From: an uncultured Candidatus Saccharibacteria bacterium
Lineage (GTDB): Bacteria; Patescibacteriota; Minisyncoccia; Phycocordibacterales; Zambryskibacteraceae
DNA: 64,000 nt
NCBI GenBank assembly: GCA_964349945.1
Contig: CAYGIH010000002.1
Span: 125,492 to 189,491 of the forward strand
Direction of reading: 5' to 3'
Both the position numbers and the translations under genes were made by a program. The notes below the pieces were generated by a model. It was not told where the DNA came from and ran no database searches. It saw only the letters and a program-made list of their open reading frames with translations. Below, piece after piece: positions 2,713 through 33,644 of this stretch. Within the stretch, counting starts at the first letter, position 1. The number at the start of each line of letters is the position of its first letter.

Positions 2713-3182
2713 TGAGAAAAGAAAAATTTATAAGAAAATCTCTTGGGTTTACATTTCTAGAGTTATTAATTGGTGTTGCTGTCTTCTCTCTTTTTGTTGT
2801 TGGAATATACAATGCATATTATTCCTTGCATGGATCAATTTTGGCATCTCATTCAAAAACGGTCGCATTAGATCTTGCAAACGAACAATTTGAACTAATC
2901 AAAAACCTCCCATATTTAAGTTTGGGAACTGTAGGTGGTAACCCCACAGGACTTATACAAGCAAACCAGTCAATTGTTAGAAGTGATATCACCTTTGATA
3001 TAAATACAACTATCCAATACAAAGATGATCCGTTTGATGGAGTGGCTGGTGGTGTTCCGGATGACACCTTACCAAATGATTATAAATTAGTTGAGGTTAC
3101 TGTATCTTGTTCAACATGTAAAAACTTCGTTCCTGTAGTTATAACAGGAAGATTTTCTCCGAAAAATCTTGAAAGTAATTAA
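2712..3182 (+). CDS. Prepilin-type N-terminal cleavage/methylation domain protein (minor pilin/pseudopilin)
   Basis: N-terminal GFTFLELLIGVAVF class III signal motif. ATGA overlap with pilC stop. Confidence 0.6.
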   Translation: MRKEKFIRKSLGFTFLELLIGVAVFSLFVVGIYNAYYSLHGSILASHSKTVALDLANEQFELIKNLPYLSLGTVGGNPTGLIQANQSIVRSDITFDINTTIQYKDDPFDGVAGGVPDDTLPNDYKLVEVTVSCSTCKNFVPVVITGRFSPKNLESN

Positions 3183-17942: not shown

Positions 17943-18332
17943 ATGGCTGGAAATAAATATGAACCAACCCCAGATGAATTAGCCGATGGGGAAGAAAATT
18001 TAACTGAATACCAGACTCAACTATCAAGAGATAGAAGAGAAATGATGAAAGGTGTTGACTTGGAGCTATTAAAAAAATGTAATTTAGAACTTAATGCTAA
18101 CGGTATGGCGATTATGGGTACGATAGATGGGACTGCAATCAGACTCAGGCTTACACCAGAGGGAGGGTATGGAGGAGGAATAGGGGATCCAGAAGTATTT
18201 TTAGACAATGATATGGCGGAGAAACTTTGGCAAAAATACTATCCGATTGCAAAAATAATAAAACATGATGGTGAGATGGAAACAACCGGAGAGCAAGCAA
18301 AACTTGAGGCGTCTAGATTGTTAAGTTTATAA
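17943..18332 (+). CDS. Hypothetical protein (native GC)
   Basis: 129 aa ORF preceded by a TATAAT box. No SD, as is typical of native genes here. Confidence 0.5.
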   Translation: MAGNKYEPTPDELADGEENLTEYQTQLSRDRREMMKGVDLELLKKCNLELNANGMAIMGTIDGTAIRLRLTPEGGYGGGIGDPEVFLDNDMAEKLWQKYYPIAKIIKHDGEMETTGEQAKLEASRLLSL

Positions 18333-18402
18333 TAGTAAAATAAGTTTTCAACAAAAAAACGGCTTAACAAGGCTGTTTTTTGTTATATTTGAGGCTAAAT
18401 GC

Positions 18403-18431
18403 TTGACATTTAATACTGACTGTGCTATTAT
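18403..18431 (+). promoter_or_regulatory. Near-consensus sigma70 promoter TTGACA-N17-TATTAT driving high-GC cassette gene
   Basis: TTGACA at 18403-18408, 17-nt spacer, TATTAT at 18426-18431. GGAGG SD at 18475-18479. Confidence 0.6.
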
Positions 18432-18485
18432 ACACAAGTACAGATGTCCTTTCCCACTACAACGGCCTAGCGCCGGAGGTATCCC

Positions 18486-19106
18486 GTGAACCGGTTTGAG
18501 AAGCTCCTGAACGCCCTGTTGGCGAAGATCGAGTCCGTCCGCGCCCTGTGCGCTGACATCCCGACCGACGTGGCGACGAAGGTGAGCGAAGAGCTCGCCC
18601 ACGTCGTGAAGGTTCTGCGTGACCCGCAGGCCATCACGACCGGTCGCAACGTCGGCTACGTCGGCGCCCTCGCGGAGGAGGCTCTGAGGGATCTGCGCTC
18701 GAACGAGCGTCGGTTCCTCATCACCCTCGGCACGATCAACGGTCTGCGAGAGCGGATCGGTGCGCTTCACCCGCAGACGCCCATGAAGATGGGGGTCTCG
18801 GACGCCATCACGCTCTACGACATCTCGCGCCAGAATCATGACACGGGGACCGCTGTGCTCCGCACGGAGTACGACGGCATCCTGTTCCTCATGGAGGAGG
18901 CCGAGACCCAGTCCCGGCTTCTGCGCTCGCGCGAAGCGGACGAGCGGATTCGCGAGACCATCGCGAACGGCGTCGTCGGCGCGATCAAGCCGGCCAAGCG
19001 CGGTCGGGCTGCAGGCAAGAGACTTGCTGATGCTGAACGTCGTTCCCAGATGAAGGGCAAGACGAACGGCGGTGGCAAGAACAACCGCAAGCAGAAGACG
19101 GCGTAG
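18486..19106 (+). CDS. High-GC (about 65%) hypothetical protein with basic C-terminal tail; GTG start
   Basis: GGAGG, 6 nt, then GTG. Private promoter and terminator. Composition is foreign to the genome. The antisense ORF 18348-19274 is judged to be a GC artefact. Confidence 0.55.
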   Translation: MNRFEKLLNALLAKIESVRALCADIPTDVATKVSEELAHVVKVLRDPQAITTGRNVGYVGALAEEALRDLRSNERRFLITLGTINGLRERIGALHPQTPMKMGVSDAITLYDISRQNHDTGTAVLRTEYDGILFLMEEAETQSRLLRSREADERIRETIANGVVGAIKPAKRGRAAGKRLADAERRSQMKGKTNGGGKNNRKQKTA

Positions 19107-19107
19107 T

Positions 19108-19168
19108 CGGGGTTCGCCCCACGAAAAGTTCCCACGGATTCCCGTGAGCACTATTCGTGGGGCTTTTT
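19108..19168 (+). terminator. Compound hairpin terminator (GGGGTTCGCCCC ... CCCCACGAA/TTCGTGGGG + T-run)
   Basis: Nested GC hairpins ending in CTTTTTG. Confidence 0.55.
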
Positions 19169-19224
19169 GTTTTCCTAAAAATGTGTAATATAGCCAGAGG
19201 CCCCATAACCAGAGGAGTATGCGC

Positions 19225-19575
19225 ATGTATAATGGTCCGGATTCTGATGTGCAAGGAGTGCCAGTAGTTCCCACTGCATCAGGCCTGTCGAAGGTTCATC
19301 ACAGCGATCTTACGGGTCTTACCCAACCAACGATCAGAGAAGTGGATGCCATGGTGGCCCACTTCAAGGGATGGAAGATGCCATCCCTTGTGGTCGCTCT
19401 TGCTGAGACGGGTTTCGTACATCGTGCGGCATGGTCGCACGGGGAAACCAAGGTTACTCAGGATGAACTCGATCGCGCGAATCGCTGTCTCTCGAAGCAC
19501 ATCACTGGTCAAATCAGGATGAATCGGGAGTACATCTGGTTTGCCAAGACGGGCGGATCAAATCCGGTGAACTAA
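19225..19575 (+). CDS. Mid/high-GC hypothetical protein, second gene of the island
   Basis: GAGGAG SD 7 nt upstream of ATG 19225. Followed by terminator AGGCCCC-AAC-GGGGCCTTTTTT. Confidence 0.45.
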   Translation: MYNGPDSDVQGVPVVPTASGLSKVHHSDLTGLTQPTIREVDAMVAHFKGWKMPSLVVALAETGFVHRAAWSHGETKVTQDELDRANRCLSKHITGQIRMNREYIWFAKTGGSNPVN

Positions 19576-23944: not shown

Positions 23945-23949
23945 AATCA

Positions 23950-23974
23950 AAAATCCCCACTCGGGGATTTTTTG
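23950..23974 (+). terminator. Intrinsic terminator after rplB (AAATCCCC-ACTC-GGGGATTTTTT)
   Basis: Perfect 6-bp GC stem plus T-run. Unexpected here, because rpsS normally follows directly. Confidence 0.7.
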
Positions 23975-24025
23975 TAACACACTTCGGGGTTATACTTTCA
24001 ACAGACACTTAACCGAGGATTGATT

Positions 24026-24268
24026 ATGAGTGAAGCTCAAGAAAAAAATCCTTGGATTAGGTTTGTATATAGTCCATGCGATGATGATCATCGAGTAGTA
24101 GTTGATTTTGTGAACCAACATGAACTGCCGGTCATACTTGATTCAAATGAATGCGCTCCACATCCAGAACTTCGGGTGAATCATGGAGAGATTCTGACTG
24201 GCGCTGATAAAATCATAAACCACTTGAAGGCACAGTTTGCCCACCTCATCACCCCAATGCCTAGTTAG
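24026..24268 (+). CDS. Small thioredoxin-fold (GST-N/glutaredoxin-like) protein
   Basis: GAGGA SD 6 nt before ATG. FVYSPCDDDHRVVVDFVNQHELPVILD resembles the GST-N beta-alpha-beta core. Weak call. Confidence 0.35.
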   Translation: MSEAQEKNPWIRFVYSPCDDDHRVVVDFVNQHELPVILDSNECAPHPELRVNHGEILTGADKIINHLKAQFAHLITPMPS

Positions 24269-24400
24269 GCATTTTTTTGTTTATATTGACAAATATTATA
24301 CATATTGTAATGTTTCTTTGTTTCCGATAGGTGAAGAACACTTTACTCATGGAGCAGATCTCCTTGAGCCACAACGGCGGAACAGTTCTTTGGGGGTTCT

Positions 24401-24799
24401 ATGAGTGAAATTGCTGGATTCATCGGGTGGTGCATCATTGTCATGCTATTTGGTAGCGTTATTATCATGATCCTCGAGATGATCAAAAACTGGTTTACTC
24501 AGAACTCTCGGTTCATTGATGAGTTTGTTGATCAAGGAACGGTCAACTTCAAGATCAGGAATCTCGCTATCGAACTCAAGGATCTCTTTGATCAGCAGAT
24601 CGAAGAGCAAAAGAGGTTTTCTGGGGACTCTCTCCATCAGCGCGAGCACAACATCAATTCGTTTTCTGAGCTTGTTTCTGAAAAGAAGGGGAAGTTTTGG
24701 AAGGTGGTCAATCTGGCCAAGAAGGTCGGCTTCGACACTCCCAGCACCATCGAAGAAGCGCTCGTATTGCCGATTGTCTTTGAAGAAGACGACGATTGA
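24401..24799 (+). CDS. Hypothetical N-terminally membrane-anchored acidic protein
   Basis: TTGACA-type promoter at about 24287, long leader, GGGGG before ATG, one TM helix, terminator at about 24822-24850. Confidence 0.45.
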   Translation: MSEIAGFIGWCIIVMLFGSVIIMILEMIKNWFTQNSRFIDEFVDQGTVNFKIRNLAIELKDLFDQQIEEQKRFSGDSLHQREHNINSFSELVSEKKGKFWKVVNLAKKVGFDTPSTIEEALVLPIVFEEDDD

Positions 24800-24996
24800 T
24801 CTAGTAATCGTCATTATGTCTTTGGCCATCCGTAAGGGTGGTTTTTTCATTGACAAAAACCTAAAATCCTATAAAGTATCCGCATAAGGTCAAAGACAAG
24901 AGGCGAACAATAAGTCCTCTCGAGACTACTCTCTCTGCAATAGCGGACGTTGAGACCTTATATAGGTCGATTTTTTTAGCCAAAAAACAAAACCAA

Positions 24997-25485
24997 ATGG
25001 CAATATCAAGAACCAAAAAAGGAGAAATAATTGATAAGCTCCAAGGAGCGCTCAAGGGTGCCAAGTCTCTTGTTTTCGTGAACTTCCATGGTTTAAAAGT
25101 TTCTGATGCCACCGCGATGCGCCGAGCCCTCAAGGGCGAAGGTGTCTCATACGCAGTGACTAAGAAAAGTTTAACCAAAAGAGTTTTAGCAGATGAGAAG
25201 TTTGAAGGTACGCAACCAGAGCTCACAGGTGAACTGGCAATGGCTTGGTCAGAAGACCTCATTGCCCCAGCCCGTGGAGTTTACGGCTTCCAAAAAAAAT
25301 TCCCAGAAGGTATTCAAATCCTCGGTGGAGTTTTCGAAGGACGATACATGGATAAGAAGGAGATGGAAGGCATCGCCACCATCCCAACTACAGATGTACT
25401 CCGTGGAATGTTTGTGAACATCATCAATTCTCCAATACAGCGTTTCGCTATCGCGCTCAATGAGGTAGCAAAAACTAAGAACTAA
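24997..25485 (+). CDS. rplJ: Ribosomal protein L10
   Basis: Conserved L10 sequence. About 145-nt structured leader upstream. Confidence 0.9.
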   Translation: MAISRTKKGEIIDKLQGALKGAKSLVFVNFHGLKVSDATAMRRALKGEGVSYAVTKKSLTKRVLADEKFEGTQPELTGELAMAWSEDLIAPARGVYGFQKKFPEGIQILGGVFEGRYMDKKEMEGIATIPTTDVLRGMFVNIINSPIQRFAIALNEVAKTKN

Positions 25486-25498
25486 TTAATTATAAAAT

Positions 25499-25861
25499 AT
25501 GACACAAGAACAAATCATCGAAGCTGTAGAGAAGTTGAGTGTACTAGAACTCAACACTCTAGTGAAGGCTATTGAAGAAAAGTGGGGTGTTTCAGCTACA
25601 GCCGTAGCGGCCGCAGGACCTGCAGCAGCCGGTGAAGCAGTAGAAGCCAAGTCAACAGCAGATGTAGAACTTACAGACGCTGGTGCCAATAAGATTGCAG
25701 TTATCAAGGTAGTGAAGGAAGTGCTCGCCCTAGGCCTCAAAGAAGCCAAGGATCTCGTAGATGCAGCACCTTCAATGCTTAAAGCAGGAATGAAGAATGA
25801 TGAAGCCGCAGATCTCAAGAAAAAGATTGAGGAAGCAGGCGGAAAGGTTACTTTAAAGTAA
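25499..25861 (+). CDS. rplL: Ribosomal protein L7/L12
   Basis: Ala-rich hinge and conserved C-terminal domain ([18 protein letters not shown]). Confidence 0.92.
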
Positions 25862-25881
25862 TAAATCATTTGTTCCGATTC

Positions 25882-25906
25882 AAAAAACCGCTTAGGCGGT
25901 TTTTTG
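25882..25906 (+). terminator. Intrinsic terminator after rplL (AAAAAACCGCTTAGGCGGTTTTTTG)
   Basis: Near-identical to the fusA terminator. Confidence 0.7.
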
Positions 25907-25963
25907 TTGACACTGAAACTCACAAGAGTAATCTATCTATAGACGGTCCCCCAAGGAGGAACG

Positions 25964-26221
25964 GTGCGTGCCACCCTAATGGATGTAAGGATCTTGTGGC
26001 TCGTCTGGTTGTATGAGAACAGACGGCCTGCGCGGAGTAAGACGCGCAAGGATCTGAACGCGCGTTTCCTCGGAATGTTCAAGGAAATTGCGAAGATAAC
26101 CAGGAAGAAGATTGGCTTTCCTGGTCGACCAGACGACGAGGTGCCTCTGGACGAGAAGTCGGATGCCCTCTACTGTCGAATGGAAAAAGAGTGGGACAGA
26201 GTCATGTCCCGCAAGAGGTGA
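25964..26221 (+). CDS. High-GC small basic hypothetical protein (85 aa), GTG start
   Basis: TTGACA at 25907-25912. AAGGAGG SD at 25953-25959, then GTG. Terminator AAACCCTATCGCTTTGATAGGGTTTTT follows. Confidence 0.45.
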   Translation: MRATLMDVRILWLVWLYENRRPARSKTRKDLNARFLGMFKEIAKITRKKIGFPGRPDDEVPLDEKSDALYCRMEKEWDRVMSRKR

Positions 26222-26288
26222 AACCCTATCGCTTTGATAGGGTTTTTACTTACTGGCATTCCTTATAGATTGTGAGTAGAATGGCCGT

Positions 26289-26849
26289 ATGACAAAGTCA
26301 GTATCCAATATCTTCGGCGGTGAAGCCAAGGTGAAAATAATGCGTTTATTCATATTTAATCCAGGCACTATTTTCGAAGCTTCAGCTGTATCAGATAGAA
26401 CCCAAGAAAGACGTGCGGTAGTAGCCAGAGAAATTCGCAATTTAATGAAGGGAGGTTTACTCAGAAAAAAAGGTAAGGGTTATACATTAAATTATGATTA
26501 TCCTTTTGTTGAAGCCTTGAATAGTTTCCTCATAGATGCGAGTCCTATTTCAGAAAAGGAAATAATCAAAAAGGTTTCTCGTGCAGGAACGATGAAGCTC
26601 ATTTTAATTTCTGGGGTATTCCTTCATGATCCAGAAGCCAGAGTTGATATGCTCGTAGTGGGGGACCATCTAAAGAAAGGTGTTTTGGTTCAAGCTATTA
26701 GTTCTATTGAAGCCATGCTCGGCAGGGAAATTCGCTATGCATCGTTTGAAACGGCTGATTTTCAATATAGATTAGGTCTCTATGACAAGCTCGTTCGAGA
26801 TATCCTCGACTTCAACCACAAGAAAATCCTTAATAAATTAGGAGTTTAG
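26289..26849 (+). CDS. Hypothetical protein (possible winged-helix N-terminal domain)
   Basis: 186 aa at native GC. No confident family assignment. Confidence 0.4.
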   Translation: MTKSVSNIFGGEAKVKIMRLFIFNPGTIFEASAVSDRTQERRAVVAREIRNLMKGGLLRKKGKGYTLNYDYPFVEALNSFLIDASPISEKEIIKKVSRAGTMKLILISGVFLHDPEARVDMLVVGDHLKKGVLVQAISSIEAMLGREIRYASFETADFQYRLGLYDKLVRDILDFNHKKILNKLGV

Positions 26850-26981
26850 CTTTATTTATTATCCACAAACCCTATACAATCATTGTTTTTATGGTTTTTG
26901 GCGGTGTATAATAAAGCATACCCCTAAAAAGAGGTAACATTAATAATAAGTGCATTTGCACAGACCCTCAGTCAAGAACAT

Positions 26982-27671
26982 ATGTTGATTAATACATGGG
27001 GACAAGTTCTCACACTTTCATTCCAGAATCTTTGGATGGGAGTTGTAGCCTTTGTTCCACAGTTAGTTGTCGCAATTATTATCCTCATCCTCGGATGGCT
27101 CATCGGCGCATTATTTGGCCGAGCTGTCTGGCAGGTGTTCCGTTCTCTAAGAGTTGATGAAGCTCTAAGACGAGCAGGTTTTGAAACATTCCTTCGCCGA
27201 GGAGGACTAAACCTCGATTCTGGTGCTTTCATTGGCGGACTTGTTAAGTGGTTTGTGATCCTTGTTTTCCTTATTGGATCATTCAACGTTCTAGGTCTCA
27301 GCCAAGTTAACGCATTCATTAGTGATGTTGTTCTTCTTTACCTCCCTCGCGTAATTGTCGCTGCCCTCATCCTACTTGTAGGAGGAGTAGTTGGTGATGT
27401 TATCGATCGAGTAGTAGTCACAGCAGCTAAGACAGCTGAAATTCGTTCAGCACACTTCGCTGGTTCACTTTCAAAGTGGGCAGTTTGGGTATTTGCTATC
27501 CTTGTCGCGCTTAGTCAGCTCGGCATCGCGGCAGCCTTTAGTCAAACTCTCTTCACAGGTATTGTTATAGCTATCTCTCTTGCACTAGGCCTTTCATTTG
27601 GTCTTGGAGGTCAAGAAGCAGCGGCTCGATTTATCGAGAAGCTACGTGGAGAGATGAGTGGGAATAAGTAA
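26982..27671 (+). CDS. Conserved-TM-helix repeat membrane protein (MscS-related TM_helix family-like)
   Basis: Four similar amphipathic/TM repeats (LVVAIIILILGWLIGALFGRAV..., VIVAALILLVGGVVGDVIDRVV...). Confidence 0.5.
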   Translation: MLINTWGQVLTLSFQNLWMGVVAFVPQLVVAIIILILGWLIGALFGRAVWQVFRSLRVDEALRRAGFETFLRRGGLNLDSGAFIGGLVKWFVILVFLIGSFNVLGLSQVNAFISDVVLLYLPRVIVAALILLVGGVVGDVIDRVVVTAAKTAEIRSAHFAGSLSKWAVWVFAILVALSQLGIAAAFSQTLFTGIVIAISLALGLSFGLGGQEAAARFIEKLRGEMSGNK

Positions 27672-27752
27672 AAAGAAGTATTATAGCTAGATAATACTTC
27701 AACTTGCATAAAAGGGCCCTATTTAGGGCTCTTTTATGTATTATAAATGTCC

Positions 27753-27781
27753 TTGACTTTATACATCAAGTATGCTATTAT
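27753..27781 (+). promoter_or_regulatory. Consensus sigma70 promoter TTGACT-N17-TATTAT
   Basis: TTGACT at 27753-27758, 17-nt spacer, TATTAT at 27776-27781. Preceded by terminator AAAAGGGCCCTATTTAGGGCTCTTTT. Confidence 0.6.
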
Positions 27782-27835
27782 AGACAGGTACGCTCTTTAG
27801 TTATACTCCCTTTAACGTATTACCACGGAGTAGCC

Positions 27836-28408
27836 ATGACGGTTGCGATGATGCAGGACCAGAGCTCGTCCGAAGGCCTTTGCCTCAAGGACGTGAACAC
27901 GGTGCTGGTGAATTTCAACTTCACCAACCCGCGAGTTGTGCCGCAGGGTCTGCGACATGTCGAACGCAAGAGCGAGCGCGAGCTCCTCGAGCGTCGCAAG
28001 CAGCAGGGCGTTGGTACCGGCCATCAGGTCGTGAACAATGCTCAGCAGACGCAGGTCGCGATGCTCCGCAAGGGTCTCTCGTCGAATGGCTTCCACCTCG
28101 TGGACAGCCACACGACCGAGATCGCGCGTCCGGGCCGCCAGAAGAAGTACCGGGTCGTGCTGCAGTTCCGGCGTATGGAGGCCGGCGAACAGGCTCCTGA
28201 GATTCCTTCGGAAGCTCTCGCCGATCTGCGCAGTCTCGCCACTGACGCTGTCTGGTCCGGCCACGTCTGGTCGAACCCGAACGGCGTGGCGGCGGTGGAC
28301 CTTGTCCAGCGCCAGCCGGGCACCCTTCCGAAGCATGCGTTCGTCACCCGCAAGGGGTGGATCGTGGCGGAGCCGGTGAGCCAGCTCGTTGCGGAAGACG
28401 GGGAGTAA
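27836..28408 (+). CDS. High-GC (about 63%) hypothetical protein, 190 aa
   Basis: GGAG SD at 27827-27830, ATG at 27836. Terminator at 28436-28462. The antisense ORF 27812-28480 is rejected as a GC artefact. Confidence 0.55.
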   Translation: MTVAMMQDQSSSEGLCLKDVNTVLVNFNFTNPRVVPQGLRHVERKSERELLERRKQQGVGTGHQVVNNAQQTQVAMLRKGLSSNGFHLVDSHTTEIARPGRQKKYRVVLQFRRMEAGEQAPEIPSEALADLRSLATDAVWSGHVWSNPNGVAAVDLVQRQPGTLPKHAFVTRKGWIVAEPVSQLVAEDGE

Positions 28409-28435
28409 TTCGCACAAGGGACTGTTCTGGGTCCA

Positions 28436-28462
28436 AGGTCGTCTGAAAAGGCGACCTTTTTT
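28436..28462 (+). terminator. Intrinsic terminator (AGGTCGTC-TGAAAAG-GCGACCTTTTTT)
   Basis: Hairpin plus T6. Confidence 0.65.
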
Positions 28463-28473
28463 CTTATAATAGT

Positions 28474-28502
28474 TTGACAATACGCCTTGATTTCTATACT
28501 AT
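28474..28502 (+). promoter_or_regulatory. Consensus promoter TTGACA-N17-TACTAT directly upstream of rpsS, with 5'-UTR hairpin AAGCTC-TCTCTC-GAGCTT (28511-28528)
   Basis: Seen directly in the sequence. A private rpsS promoter is unusual. Confidence 0.5.
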
Positions 28503-28539
28503 ATCTTCCTAAGCTCTCTCTCGAGCTTCTTTATTTCTC

Positions 28540-31476: not shown

Positions 31477-32010
31477 ATGGAAACATTAAAAACAAAAATT
31501 GAAAAGGCATTTGATACTTTGAAGAAGACTCAAGGTTATAAGAACAAAATGCAATCACCAAAGATTAAAAAGGTGGTTATTTCTGTTGGAGTTGGTTCAA
31601 TCAAGGATAAGGCTAAAATAAAACTCATTGCTGATAGGTTGGCAAAAATCACAGGTCAAAAAGCAGCAGAGAGAACAGCCAAGATTGCTATCGCTGGATT
31701 TAAATCAAGACAAGGAGATATGATTGGATACCAAGTGACTCTTCGTGGTGCGAGAATGTATGATTTCCTTGAGAAGCTTATTCATATCTCTCTTCCTAGA
31801 ACCAAAGACTTCAGAGGTATTAATCGAGATTCAGCTGATGGGATGGGGAACTATACTCTAGGTATCAAAGAACATACTATCTTCCCAGAAACTGCAGATG
31901 AAGATATCAAGGATGTTTTTGGTTTGGCTATCACTATTGTCACTACAGCCAAATCAAAGTCAGAAGTACAAGCCTTTCTCGACTATCTCGGTTTTCCTTT
32001 CAAAAAATAG
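31477..32010 (+). CDS. rplE: Ribosomal protein L5
   Basis: Conserved L5 sequence. Confidence 0.92.
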   Translation: METLKTKIEKAFDTLKKTQGYKNKMQSPKIKKVVISVGVGSIKDKAKIKLIADRLAKITGQKAAERTAKIAIAGFKSRQGDMIGYQVTLRGARMYDFLEKLIHISLPRTKDFRGINRDSADGMGNYTLGIKEHTIFPETADEDIKDVFGLAITIVTTAKSKSEVQAFLDYLGFPFKK

Positions 32011-32029
32011 AACTCAATAAATAGTTATC

Positions 32030-32058
32030 TTGACAATACACCTCAAACGGTGTATTTT
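32030..32058 (+). promoter_or_regulatory. Promoter TTGACA-N17-TATTTT with palindrome ACACC-N6-GGTGT (32038-32053) in the spacer; second palindrome GGTGT-GTG-ACACC (32085-32097) over SD/start codon
   Basis: Seen directly in the sequence. Operator-like dyads overlap the promoter and the translation start. Confidence 0.5.
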
Positions 32059-32089
32059 CTTTTGAGAAAAACCTAACGCCGGAGGGTGT

Positions 32090-32710
32090 GTGACACCAAA
32101 CATTAGTTTTTGGATGCAGGTGTTGGGTGGTACTTTTTACACTCTGAATAAGATCTTCTTCAGCTTTAAGGAGAGAAGTAGTGGAGAAAGAGCGCGTCAG
32201 TGGAGAATCTGGGCCTGGATTGTGTATATCATCGGCTTGGCTCCCTGGCTCGTGATTCTCTCACACGAGAGGAATTGGATGGTGACCTTCGTCGAAGCGG
32301 GCGGAGCTCCTGCAATGTTTCTTGGGCTCATCCTTGCTTTTCGTAGGGCTGATGATCATCCAAGTGAACAGAACAAAAGGCTCGAGAACTTTTTCGACAA
32401 GTTTGCCCGAGTTGCAGCGGTTCTCGGTATCGCCTTTAGTCTTTATGATGTTGGCTTGATGAAGTCGTGGACACAGTGGGCTGAGCTTGGAGTGACGATT
32501 GGTTTCTTGGTTGGGACATATCGTTTGGCCAAGGATCATTTGGATGGTTACCTCTGGTTCTTACTCATGAATTTTTCCTGCTGTGTGCTCATGAACCTAC
32601 AAGGATACAAGTGGCTGGCATTTCAGCAGTTGTTGTCCCTTGTGTTTGTCCTCGATGCTTACAAGGTGAAGAAGTACAGACCCACAGATCCATATTGGTA
32701 TGTTCCTTGA
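32090..32710 (+). CDS. High-GC (about 52%) polytopic membrane protein, GTG start; family unclear (weak PnuC-like features)
   Basis: GGAGG at 32081-32085, GTG at 32090. 5-6 TM helices, Trp-rich (WRIWAW, ERNWMV). Confidence 0.5.
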   Translation: MTPNISFWMQVLGGTFYTLNKIFFSFKERSSGERARQWRIWAWIVYIIGLAPWLVILSHERNWMVTFVEAGGAPAMFLGLILAFRRADDHPSEQNKRLENFFDKFARVAAVLGIAFSLYDVGLMKSWTQWAELGVTIGFLVGTYRLAKDHLDGYLWFLLMNFSCCVLMNLQGYKWLAFQQLLSLVFVLDAYKVKKYRPTDPYWYVP

Positions 32711-32735
32711 CCGACGATGTTGTCGGTCTTTTTAT
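32709..32735 (+). terminator. Intrinsic terminator GACCGAC-GATGTT-GTCGGTCTTTTT
   Basis: Perfect 7-bp stem plus T5. Confidence 0.7.
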
Positions 32736-32763
32736 TGACTATATTTTGCTATAAGGTTATATT
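32735..32763 (+). promoter_or_regulatory. Consensus promoter TTGACT-N17-TATATT
   Basis: TTGACT at 32735-32740, TATATT at 32758-32763. Confidence 0.6.
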
Positions 32764-32803
32764 TTGTCGAGATTTTTTGTTCACATGTACATTTGGAGGA
32801 AGG

Positions 32804-33097
32804 ATGCCGAAACGTTTTGTGATTCTTAGCAACCCGAGCGAGTTTGAACTCATCATGTCGCTCTGGGACAGGAAATCTGGTCCGAGATCAGTACGTTTTG
32901 ACTGTATCGAGAACATTGAAGACGATGCAGACAAGGAAGTGACTTTCGAAGTTCACATCCTTCTCCTGAGGCGGGATCGTACGAACTCTCATGAATGGAC
33001 CTTCAGGGGAGTAATTGAGGAGACCAACGAGGAAGTTAGTGGTCTTTGTTCCACTGATTCTGAAGATCGAGGAGAGTACGTTCTCATCTTTGCTTAA
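32804..33097 (+). CDS. Mid-GC small acidic hypothetical protein (98 aa)
   Basis: GGAGG at 32795-32799, ATG at 32804 (MPKRFVILSN...). Terminator at 33098-33121. Confidence 0.5.
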   Translation: MPKRFVILSNPSEFELIMSLWDRKSGPRSVRFDCIENIEDDADKEVTFEVHILLLRRDRTNSHEWTFRGVIEETNEEVSGLCSTDSEDRGEYVLIFA

Positions 33098-33152
33098 CCA
33101 CGCTCTGGTCGTGGTTTTTTTATATAAAAAATCCGCCTAGTTTCAGGCGGAT
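33098..33152. terminator. Back-to-back terminators (+: ACCACG-CTCTGGT-CGTGGTTTTTTT; -: ATCCGCCT-GAAACT-AGGCGGATTTTTT)
   Basis: Convergent cassette genes end here. Confidence 0.6.
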
Positions 33153-33334
33153 GTTGCGTGGACTGGGACGGGCTTAGGTTCTTGTATTTCGGATTCTTCT
33201 TGATCTGGGAAGCAGATCATCGCGAAGCCTTCAGCAGCAGCTTCCAAAAAGAGGATAGCATCCTCTGCGCTACTGGTTAGGGCTTTCATGAGGTCTCTTA
33301 CTTCCTGATCATCTTCGGACCAAGCAGGCGCCAT
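33143..33334 (-). CDS. Small acidic hypothetical protein (63 aa)
   Basis: Minus-strand promoter TTGTCA (33397-33402)-N17-TATATT (33374-33379). GGAG SD 5 nt before ATG at 33334. The longer ORF to 33511 is rejected. Confidence 0.45.
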   Translation of the reverse strand: MAPAWSEDDQEVRDLMKALTSSAEDAILFLEAAAEGFAMICFPDQEESEIQEPKPVPVHATSA

Positions 33335-33458
33335 CACGTCTCCATGTGTTGAGGAACTGGGGGGTCCAGGCTCAATATAGCTAAAATCACTAGGTTTGAC
33401 AAGATAGGGCTTTATGATAAGCTGAATTACCAGCTTTTCGAAGCTATTTTTATTCAAT

Positions 33459-33644
33459 ATGGCCAAAACGTCAGTTAAAGCTAGAGCAAGAAAAACACCC
33501 AAGTTCAGCACTCGGGCTACTCATCGTTGCTTTAAATGTGGCCGAGGACGGGGCTATATGAGGGATTTCGACCTTTGCCGTATATGTTTTAGAGAATTGG
33601 CTAATGAGGGCAAAATCCCAGGGATAAAGAAATCTTCTTGGTAA
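33459..33644 (+). CDS. rpsN: Ribosomal protein S14 (zinc-binding type Z)
   Basis: 61 aa with CxxC...CxxC (CFKCGR...CRICFRE). Confidence 0.9.

Follow-up and report, generated by a model that had tools for sequence, protein, structure and literature searches.

The S10-spc cluster is a textbook case of a gene order that has become frozen, and phylogenies of uncultivated bacteria use its genes as standard markers. Here we analyze a 64,000-nucleotide stretch of contig CAYGIH010000002.1 (hereafter, the window), which carries the low-GC (about 38-40%) ribosomal gene cluster of a member of the Patescibacteria, and we focus on the 1448 nt from the stop of rplE to the start of rpsN, which hold three open reading frames (ORFs). 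We find that this interval holds an islet of accessory genes, situated in a hotspot that is shared across the lineage and lies between the genes for ribosomal proteins L5 and S14 (the L5|S14 junction). We consider probable the fuller reading in which the islet occupies an insertion hotspot and, of two palindromic dyads near its first gene, dyad 1 is a terminator of rplE and dyad 2 has no role.

Three self-contained units lie between rplE and rpsN

A preliminary description of this DNA, made from the sequence alone, reported three self-contained units, all with promoter and terminator, that break the spc gene order between L5 and S14, and our sequence scans agree. All three units have a sigma-70-like promoter (10/12 matches, 17-nt spacer), a Shine-Dalgarno sequence (SD), and a terminator consisting of a hairpin plus a T-run. 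ORF1 has the GTG start, the 206 residues, and the Trp-rich composition (11 Trp) claimed for it, and the convergent 63-aa ORF on the minus strand is present as a sequence feature at 33143-33334. The second ORF is acidic, as claimed, but encodes 97 rather than 98 residues. Both ACACC/GGTGT dyads lie where they had been placed, ACACC-N6-GGTGT at 32038-32053 and GGTGT-GTG-ACACC at 32085-32097. The features of the locus, in window coordinates, are as follows.

31477-32010, plus strand: rplE (uL5), the left conserved flank (Pfam Ribosomal_L5 and L5_C)
32011-33392, no strand assigned: variable accessory-gene islet in the L5|S14 hotspot (from GC and gap variability among relatives)
32030-32058, plus strand: P1, promoter-like TTGACA-17-TATTTT for ORF1 (10/12 matches)
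32035-32064, plus strand: dyad 1, hairpin AATACACC-TCAAAC-GGTGTATT, then TTTCTTTT (from terminator scan, fold, and relatives)
32085-32097, plus strand: dyad 2, GGTGT-GTG-ACACC, across the end of the SD and the GTG start
32090-32710, plus strand: ORF1, 206 aa, seven transmembrane (TM) helices, predicted PnuC fold, distant Pnu-like family
32709-32733, plus strand: T1, intrinsic terminator of ORF1 (hairpin 32709-32728; -12.4 kcal/mol, z -4.5)
32735-32763, plus strand: P2, promoter-like TTGACT-17-TATATT for ORF2 (10/12 matches; conserved in relative L090)
32804-33097, plus strand: ORF2, 97 aa, acidic, alpha+beta, orphan family
33096-33123, plus strand: T2, intrinsic terminator of ORF2 (hairpin 33096-33116; conserved in L090)
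33131-33152, minus strand: T3, terminator hairpin of the convergent unit, overlapping the last codons of ORF3 (conserved in L090)
33143-33334, minus strand: ORF3, 63-aa acidic ORF with SD and promoter, coding status unsupported
33374-33402 (read 33402-33374), minus strand: P3, promoter-like TTGTCA-17-TATATT for ORF3 (10/12 matches)
33396-33423, plus strand: rpsN promoter TTGACA-16-TGaTAAGCT with extended -10 (conserved in 7 genomes)
33432-33458, plus strand: rpsN leader, small hairpin AGCTT-TTCG-AAGCT followed by a U-run (in 7 close relatives)
33459-33644, plus strand: rpsN (zinc-type uS14, 61 aa), the right conserved flank (Pfam Ribosomal_S14, 82 bits)

The insert is compositionally foreign. 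GC content is 45-51% in the islet against about 38% in the flanks, and GC at third codon positions, about 0.30 in the ribosomal genes on either side, is 0.47-0.55 in the insert. Sequence similarity to L010, the nearest relative, picks up again at about 33393. We reject an assembly artefact because the islet sequence is base-identical in three independent assemblies and because two closed genomes, CP060229 and CP174359, are gapped at this junction too, by 1309 nt and 351 nt, respectively.

The L5|S14 junction is expanded across the lineage

We retrieved 80 relatives with uL5 and placed 16 genes of the cluster in them by tblastn; the nearest uL5 sequences in a species-level genome collection belong to Paceibacteria/Parcubacteria-type metagenome-assembled genomes and are at most 81% identical to that of the window. 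The L5|S14 gap in these relatives has a median of 611 nt and ranges from 23 to 5232 nt; 57 of the 61 gaps measured exceed 100 nt, 43 exceed 300 nt, and 21 exceed 1 kb, and S14 is missing within 3 kb of L5 in 8 further loci. At the 14 other junctions between S19 and SecY, the median is never above 38 nt, and the largest gap is 371 nt. The ORFs found in the L5|S14 gaps are mutually unrelated, lie on both strands, and mostly have no Pfam match. Cargo with Pfam matches includes ECF sigma factors, PaaX-like proteins, a DUF559 nuclease, NADAR, HigB, and ParB_N, along with a reverse transcriptase (RT) plus bAvd. Given the RT and bAvd, the HigB-like toxin, and the nucleases, the slot evidently also accepts selfish or defense-type genes. 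We found no description of an L5|S14 hotspot in the literature searched.

Two further observations concern the content of these gaps. An RT together with a bAvd-like accessory protein is the signature of a diversity-generating retroelement, here in Pfam matches pooled across the relatives' gaps. The largest L5|S14 gaps, of 2.9-5.2 kb (L051, L056, L064, L066, and L083), hold ORFs of up to 1054 aa.

ORF2 records an exchange of cargo

One relative, L090, has the order rplE, terminator, P2, ORF2, without ORF1. ORF2 differs between the window and L090 at 4.8% of nucleotides (95.2% identical), whereas rplN, rplX, and rplE differ at 12.0% (88.0% identical; Fisher p = 1e-4). Being less diverged than its flanks, ORF2 was shared by the two genomes more recently than the flanks were, and we read this contrast between the sequences of cargo and flank as direct evidence for cargo exchange, by a route that would be recombination in the conserved flanks. 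The changes within ORF2 comprise 12 synonymous and 2 non-synonymous substitutions, and this excess marks it as a real gene under purifying selection. Its 97-aa product has a net charge of about -9 and a confident alpha+beta model (pLDDT 84) for which fold comparison gave no informative match. One distant homologue, 33% identical, adjoins infC-rpmI-rplT in another Patescibacterium; ORF2 is a conserved orphan cytosolic protein.

The third unit is less secure. Translated mechanically, ORF3 reaches a GTG at 33511 inside rpsN; its promoter and an SD (GGAG, 5 nt upstream) fit the ATG at 33334. A word-indexed search gave no homologues, and no cluster variants exist, so that conservation offers no support for coding, and the last codons run into the unit's own terminator stem, which makes its coding status doubtful. 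Neither ORF2 nor ORF3 is kin to the ORFs in another relative, L091: its 113-aa ORF is unrelated to ORF2 on comparison, and its convergent 80-aa ORF is unrelated to ORF3.

A terminator-like hairpin is nested in the spacer of P1

Dyad 1 begins 25 nt past the rplE stop and extends beyond ACACC-N6-GGTGT to AATACACC-N6-GGTGTATT (32035-32056), which gives it arms of 8 bp with a T-run after the stem (UUUCUUUU). A terminator scan marked it as terminator-like, and its RNA fold has an energy of -10.8 kcal/mol (z -3.2), comparable to the -12.4 kcal/mol of the terminator of ORF1. In form, then, dyad 1 is what is expected of an intrinsic terminator, a stable stem-loop that lies past a stop codon and leads straight into a U-rich tract.

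The sequences of relatives suggest, in addition, that structure rather than sequence is conserved at this position. In L091, the promoter that follows rplE (TTGACT-17-TATTTT) is the positional homologue of P1 and likewise holds a hairpin inside its 17-nt spacer, AATAGCGC-GAAG-GCGCTATT plus TTTGTTT. The outer AATA/TATT of the stem is kept, and three of the eight pairs, the inner ones, are changed on both sides; the core reads AGCGC/GCGCT where the window has ACACC/GGTGT. In L090, rplE is followed by a classic terminator with a CACC/GGTG core (ACCACC-TTCG-GGTGGT plus a T-run). More generally, a terminator-like hairpin lies within 130 nt of the rplE stop in 41 of 66 relatives with an expanded gap (62%), compared with 40 of 400 control segments. 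Because the hairpin is kept with a changed stem and goes with the region 3' of rplE instead of with the transporter gene, we take dyad 1 to be a weak terminator or attenuator, probably belonging to rplE and nested in the spacer of P1.

Other roles considered for the dyads

Dyad 2 lies beside an SD, GGAGG, placed 5 nt upstream of the GTG of ORF1. Its left arm continues this strong SD (GGAGG-GTG) and its right arm is simply codons 2-3 (ACA CCA). Its fold, at -5.3 kcal/mol (z +0.17), is no better than that of shuffles, and the dyad was not seen to be conserved in the ORF1 homologues. We conclude that dyad 2 arises simply because a strong SD adjoins codons 2-3, and no role can be demonstrated for it. 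One could instead regard it, along with similar stems in relatives, as a translational attenuator, with the GTG in the loop and part of the SD in the stem, such that expression of the transporter is kept low or condition-dependent by an mRNA hairpin. This is suggested by the three closest homologues, which have a stem of 5-7 bp around the GTG start in differing sequences (GGTGT/ACACC in the window, AGAG/CTCT in L091, GGTGAC/GTCATC in L004), and by the GTG or TTG starts behind strong extended SDs in 34 of 72 family members. Yet pairing between the SD and the coding region occurs in 61% of family members and in 53% of control genes (p = 0.41), mean folding energies are alike (-7.8 and -7.5 kcal/mol, respectively; p = 0.20), and the window's own start hairpin has the positive z noted above. 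An SD/start hairpin is therefore ruled out as a trait of the ORF1 family, being equally frequent in control genes, and we regard translational attenuation here as unlikely.

Slightly less likely still is the view put forward in the preliminary description, that both dyads are operators of a dedicated dimeric repressor encoded elsewhere, one blocking RNA polymerase in the spacer and the other acting over the SD and start codon, either as a roadblock or by blocking translation. The appeal of this view is that one half-site is common to two dyads less than 60 nt apart, between the -35 and -10 elements and over the start codon. Dyad pairs that share a half-site within 80 nt number 14 in the window, against a first-order Markov expectation of 2.7 per 64 kb for all 5-mers; the other 13 are A/T-rich and this pair is the sole GC-containing case, the shared half-site having been noticed after the fact. 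Pnu-family genes, which ORF1 resembles in predicted fold, are also, in many cases, controlled by dedicated regulators (NiaR or NadR, for example), as this view would have it.

The half-site, however, is neither repeated at promoters in the window nor conserved upstream of homologues. As single types the dyads are unremarkable in the 64 kb, one being found once against 0.29 expected (25 of 100 shuffles reach 1) and the other twice against 0.29 expected (4 of 100 shuffles reach 2). No other promoter in the window carries a copy; pattern searches for a regulon, run with shuffles, gave just one further site, at 3051 and inside a coding ORF, and every other near-match to the extended dyad has 3 or more mismatches. 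Upstream of about 70 ORF1 homologues the half-site does not occur. In L091 the hairpin-bearing promoter has a different stem and drives a different gene (a 62-aa ORF), while the ORF1 homologue of that genome has another promoter, without a dyad. Dyad 2 as a structure does not exceed shuffles, and no helix-turn-helix gene was found in the islet. Dyads at random frequency genome-wide and lacking conservation in homologous cassettes are what the preliminary description itself had named as the outcome that would leave operators unsupported, and the operator hypothesis can be set aside.

ORF1 has a predicted PnuC fold

The confident structure model of ORF1 (pLDDT 91) has seven helices, and its best structural match, by a clear margin, is PnuC (PDB 4QTN), at about 10% sequence identity. 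Pnu transporters share a seven-TM core of two three-helix repeats joined by a linker helix, carry a ligand-binding motif, WxxW(x)3D/N, in TM6, and work by facilitated diffusion with metabolic trapping (PMC5749112). The model of ORF1 has this core, and we assign it a PnuC fold on that basis. The Pfam model PF04973 (NMN_transporter) scores ORF1 at 25.2 bits, below its gathering score of 27.3, and matches 20 of 37 ORF1 homologues at E <= 0.01 (best 7e-6), all below threshold; one homologue, P0006, has a precomputed PF04973 match. A profile search of PDB sequences with ORF1 did not retrieve 4QTN. The suggestion in the preliminary description that the membrane protein could be PnuC-like or another small transporter thus gains support from the predicted fold and the weak PF04973 matches.

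What ORF1 has in common with the Pnu proteins (PnuC 4QTN, PnuT) is the seven-helix 3+1+3 core, a Trp-rich composition, and a weak but consistent similarity to PF04973. What sets it apart, besides its low identity and its sub-threshold Pfam score, is TM6 (residues 153-170), which starts GYLWFLLMN, as in the family consensus, with one Trp (W156) and an Asn at +5, that is, GYLW(x)4N in place of WxxW(x)3D/N, together with the absence of an adjacent kinase or known riboswitch. We therefore do not file ORF1 as a member of the Pnu family. By analogy it most plausibly acts like a Pnu facilitator, by passive uptake followed by intracellular trapping, and its substrate, brought in by facilitated diffusion, is most likely a small vitamin-like or nucleoside-like metabolite.

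The ORF1 family comprises at least 45 clusters, at about 90 loci with unrelated gene contexts; a homologue sits at L5|S14 only in the window and in L091/L092, where it is 75% identical. In the literature searched we found no description of PnuC-like genes in Patescibacteria. A riboswitch or other known RNA upstream of ORF1 was ruled out by Rfam scans, which gave nothing in the islet (at the gathering threshold, with only noise at E <= 5) or in 20 homologue loci. Eight homologues (L117, L107, L114, L129, L131, L104, L133, and L134) have longer 5' untranslated regions with hairpins 60-70 nt upstream of the ORF1 homologue, and these share a GCACAUUUC...AAAGGAGGU segment before TTG starts, with no Rfam match at the gathering threshold. 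This segment could be a cis-regulatory RNA that hints at the substrate, or it could reflect mere close relatedness.

rpsN has its own promoter and leader

Directly upstream of rpsN lies a conserved promoter, TTGACA-16-TGaTAAGCT. The sequence TRTGNTAAGCT is invariant in 7 genomes with entirely different cargo, and a -35-like hexamer lies 16-17 nt upstream of TAAGCT. The preliminary description had proposed that rpsN may be driven by readthrough or by the convergent region. Since three terminators and a convergent unit lie between rplE and rpsN, and rpsN has a promoter of its own, readthrough is unlikely to be its main drive. The palindromic TTTGACAA (33395-33402) provides the -35 element of the rpsN promoter on the plus strand and that of P3 on the minus strand, with an overlap of 5 bp, and the divergent rpsN and ORF3 promoters may compete and be mutually exclusive.

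The rpsN leader hairpin is present in all 7 close relatives and folds with -4.7 kcal/mol (z -2.6); covariation in this window-type hairpin is weak. Five more distant relatives have a different leader hairpin, 24-34 nt upstream of rpsN (L026:6683-6723, L040:7793-7833, L048:4031-4071, L058:8603-8644, and L089:7983-8023), in which an internal loop of AAGUC / GAUACU is invariant. Base for base, this loop matches the S8 site in 16S rRNA helix 21 (E. coli 595-599 AAGUC and 639-645 GAUACUG), the core of which is defined in PMC4176348. The flanking helices, 92% paired, covary: both bases differ in 7 of 13 pairs, and none of 500 shuffles is as good. The leader matches no Rfam family, and no S8-site mimic is present near the rpsN of the window.

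In the E. coli spc operon, S8 autoregulates through an mRNA mimic of helix 21, according to Cerretti et al. 1988 as cited in PMC4176348. The relatives' leaders resemble that system in having the AAGUC / GAUACU loop of helix 21 between covarying helices. They differ from it in position, since their site is upstream of rpsN and not at the start of rplE, and the window differs from both in having a small hairpin leader only. On these sequence grounds we propose the relatives' leader as a new candidate S8 autoregulatory leader. It would be a new ribosomal leader outside the Gammaproteobacteria, and it supports the notion that rpsN heads an autonomously regulated unit in the clade.

A second conserved type of rpsN leader occurs in L019, L033, L037, L055, L059, and L078, within about 100 nt upstream of rpsN, and consists of GATTGGAAGC, a variable hairpin, GCTAACCAATC, and then a U-run.

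Other interruptions of the cluster

The L2|S19 junction behaves like L5|S14 in the relatives, with a median gap of 1221 nt and 27 of 33 relatives above 300 nt; with gaps this wide, it is a second clade-wide hotspot. In the window, the cluster is interrupted here a second time by 4.6 kb (23945-28539, rplB to rpsS), which contain two small ORFs, rplJ-rplL (24997-25861), further ORFs, a gene for an MscS-like membrane protein (26982-27671), and a stretch of 65% GC (about 27800-28480). A third interruption of the translation-gene cluster lies between fusA and tuf (17943-19575), where three ORFs of 129, 206, and 118 aa have a GC content of about 52%.

Discussion

Our reading of the locus, an accessory-gene islet in an insertion hotspot with dyad 1 as the terminator of rplE, draws directly on the anatomy of the interval, the hotspot statistics, the relative that shares ORF2 without ORF1, the predicted fold of ORF1, the purifying selection on ORF2, and the conserved rpsN promoter. 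Several observations weigh against it. Termination at dyad 1 may be weak, given that its stem counts only 3 G-C pairs and its T-run is interrupted, and the structural case for it consists of one orthologue (L091) plus the general pattern in relatives. A palindrome in a promoter spacer also occupies a classical operator position, and two dyads with one GC-containing half-site within 60 nt are uncommon under a simple background. As to ORF1, its TM6 lacks the WxxW(x)3D/N motif, and no substrate kinase adjoins it in the window, L004, L005, L008, or L091. Lastly, the islet yielded neither an integrase or transposase nor convincing flanking repeats.

How such a slot could operate may be outlined as follows. 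In Paceibacteria-type Patescibacteria, the S10-spc cluster would be transcriptionally split after rplE, with rplE ending in a terminator and rpsN having its own promoter and leader. Foreign genes could then enter and leave the slot without disturbing ribosomal protein expression, given the terminator of rplE and the autonomy of rpsN, and the highly conserved flanking genes can serve as recombination arms. In the window the slot would be filled by three autonomous promoter-ORF-terminator units with a GC content above that of the host, and dyad 1 would end rplE transcripts, while transcripts from P1 would start downstream of the hairpin.

The least likely of the alternatives is that the islet is a discrete mobile element targeting this site, or the descendant of one, such as an integron cassette array, a transposon, or a phage remnant. 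It is true that every gene is a compact unit closing in a hairpin, that short A/T-rich repeats lie at module borders in the window, and that the relatives' cargo includes an RT with bAvd, a HigB toxin, and nucleases. But the islet contains no integrase, transposase, or phage gene, the border repeats are short and of low complexity, and the hairpins, at 20-22 nt and with T-runs, are terminators, while attC sites are 57-141 nt long. The genes also have their own promoters; with no attC site, no linked IntI, and a promoter-like site for each ORF, the islet is not an integron cassette array. Searches of PHROGs and PADLOC for a phage or defense origin came back empty save for a 12-bit noise match for ORF3. 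Candidate mobile-element borders amounted to the short A/T-rich repeats at the module edges: direct repeats TTTTTATTGACTAT (32729-32742) and TTTTTATTCAATAT (33447-33460) bracket ORF2 plus ORF3, and inverted repeats TCAATAAATAG (32014-32024) and CTTTTTATTGA (32728-32738) bracket the ORF1 module. These could represent microhomology used in the gain of modules, or chance.

Our preferred reading, an accessory-gene islet in an insertion hotspot, has precedents. Hotspots of horizontal transfer flanked by core genes collect unrelated accessory genes with fast turnover, and many contain no recognizable mobile-element genes, with homologous recombination in the flanks a plausible route (Oliveira et al. 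2017, PMC5635113). The L5|S14 slot is like these in being one interval between persistent core genes that collects unrelated accessory genes. It differs in that it lies inside the S10-spc ribosomal cluster, normally among the most rigid of bacterial gene orders, in that it extends beyond one species, being common to genomes whose uL5 is 59-81% identical to that of the window, and in that its cargo is mostly one to few very small genes. The closest precedent at the locus itself comes from the Bacilli, where rpsN has been replaced within the spc operon by recombination (Brandis 2021, PMC8046335). There, too, the rplE-rpsN-rpsH segment tolerates gene-level exchange with its neighbors unaffected; the Bacilli swap one S14 isoform for another, whereas the insertion described here places unrelated non-ribosomal genes, complete with promoters and terminators, upstream of an intact rpsN.

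A broader proposal, on which our confidence is evenly divided, is that the S10-spc superoperon in Paceibacteria is cut into three autonomous units, S10-L2, S19-L5, and S14-SecY, with L2|S19 and L5|S14 serving throughout the clade as slots whose small accessory genes can be exchanged by recombination. Compact composites of terminator and promoter, such as the promoter after rplE with a hairpin in its spacer, would insulate the slots, as would, in some members of the clade, the new S8-binding leader that precedes rpsN, and the islet of the window, with its PnuC-like importer, would be one allele of its slot.

In our view the main interest lies in the slot rather than in its three genes. That a junction within so conserved a cluster is expanded in more than 90% of related genomes, with unrelated cargo, shows that the operon architecture of reduced genomes is more plastic than has been assumed, and binning or synteny-based tools may mishandle the region. 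The slot also offers a defined place in which to look for strain-specific genes of Patescibacteria, and the transporters among them, the PnuC-like family for example, may indicate what these symbionts obtain from their hosts.

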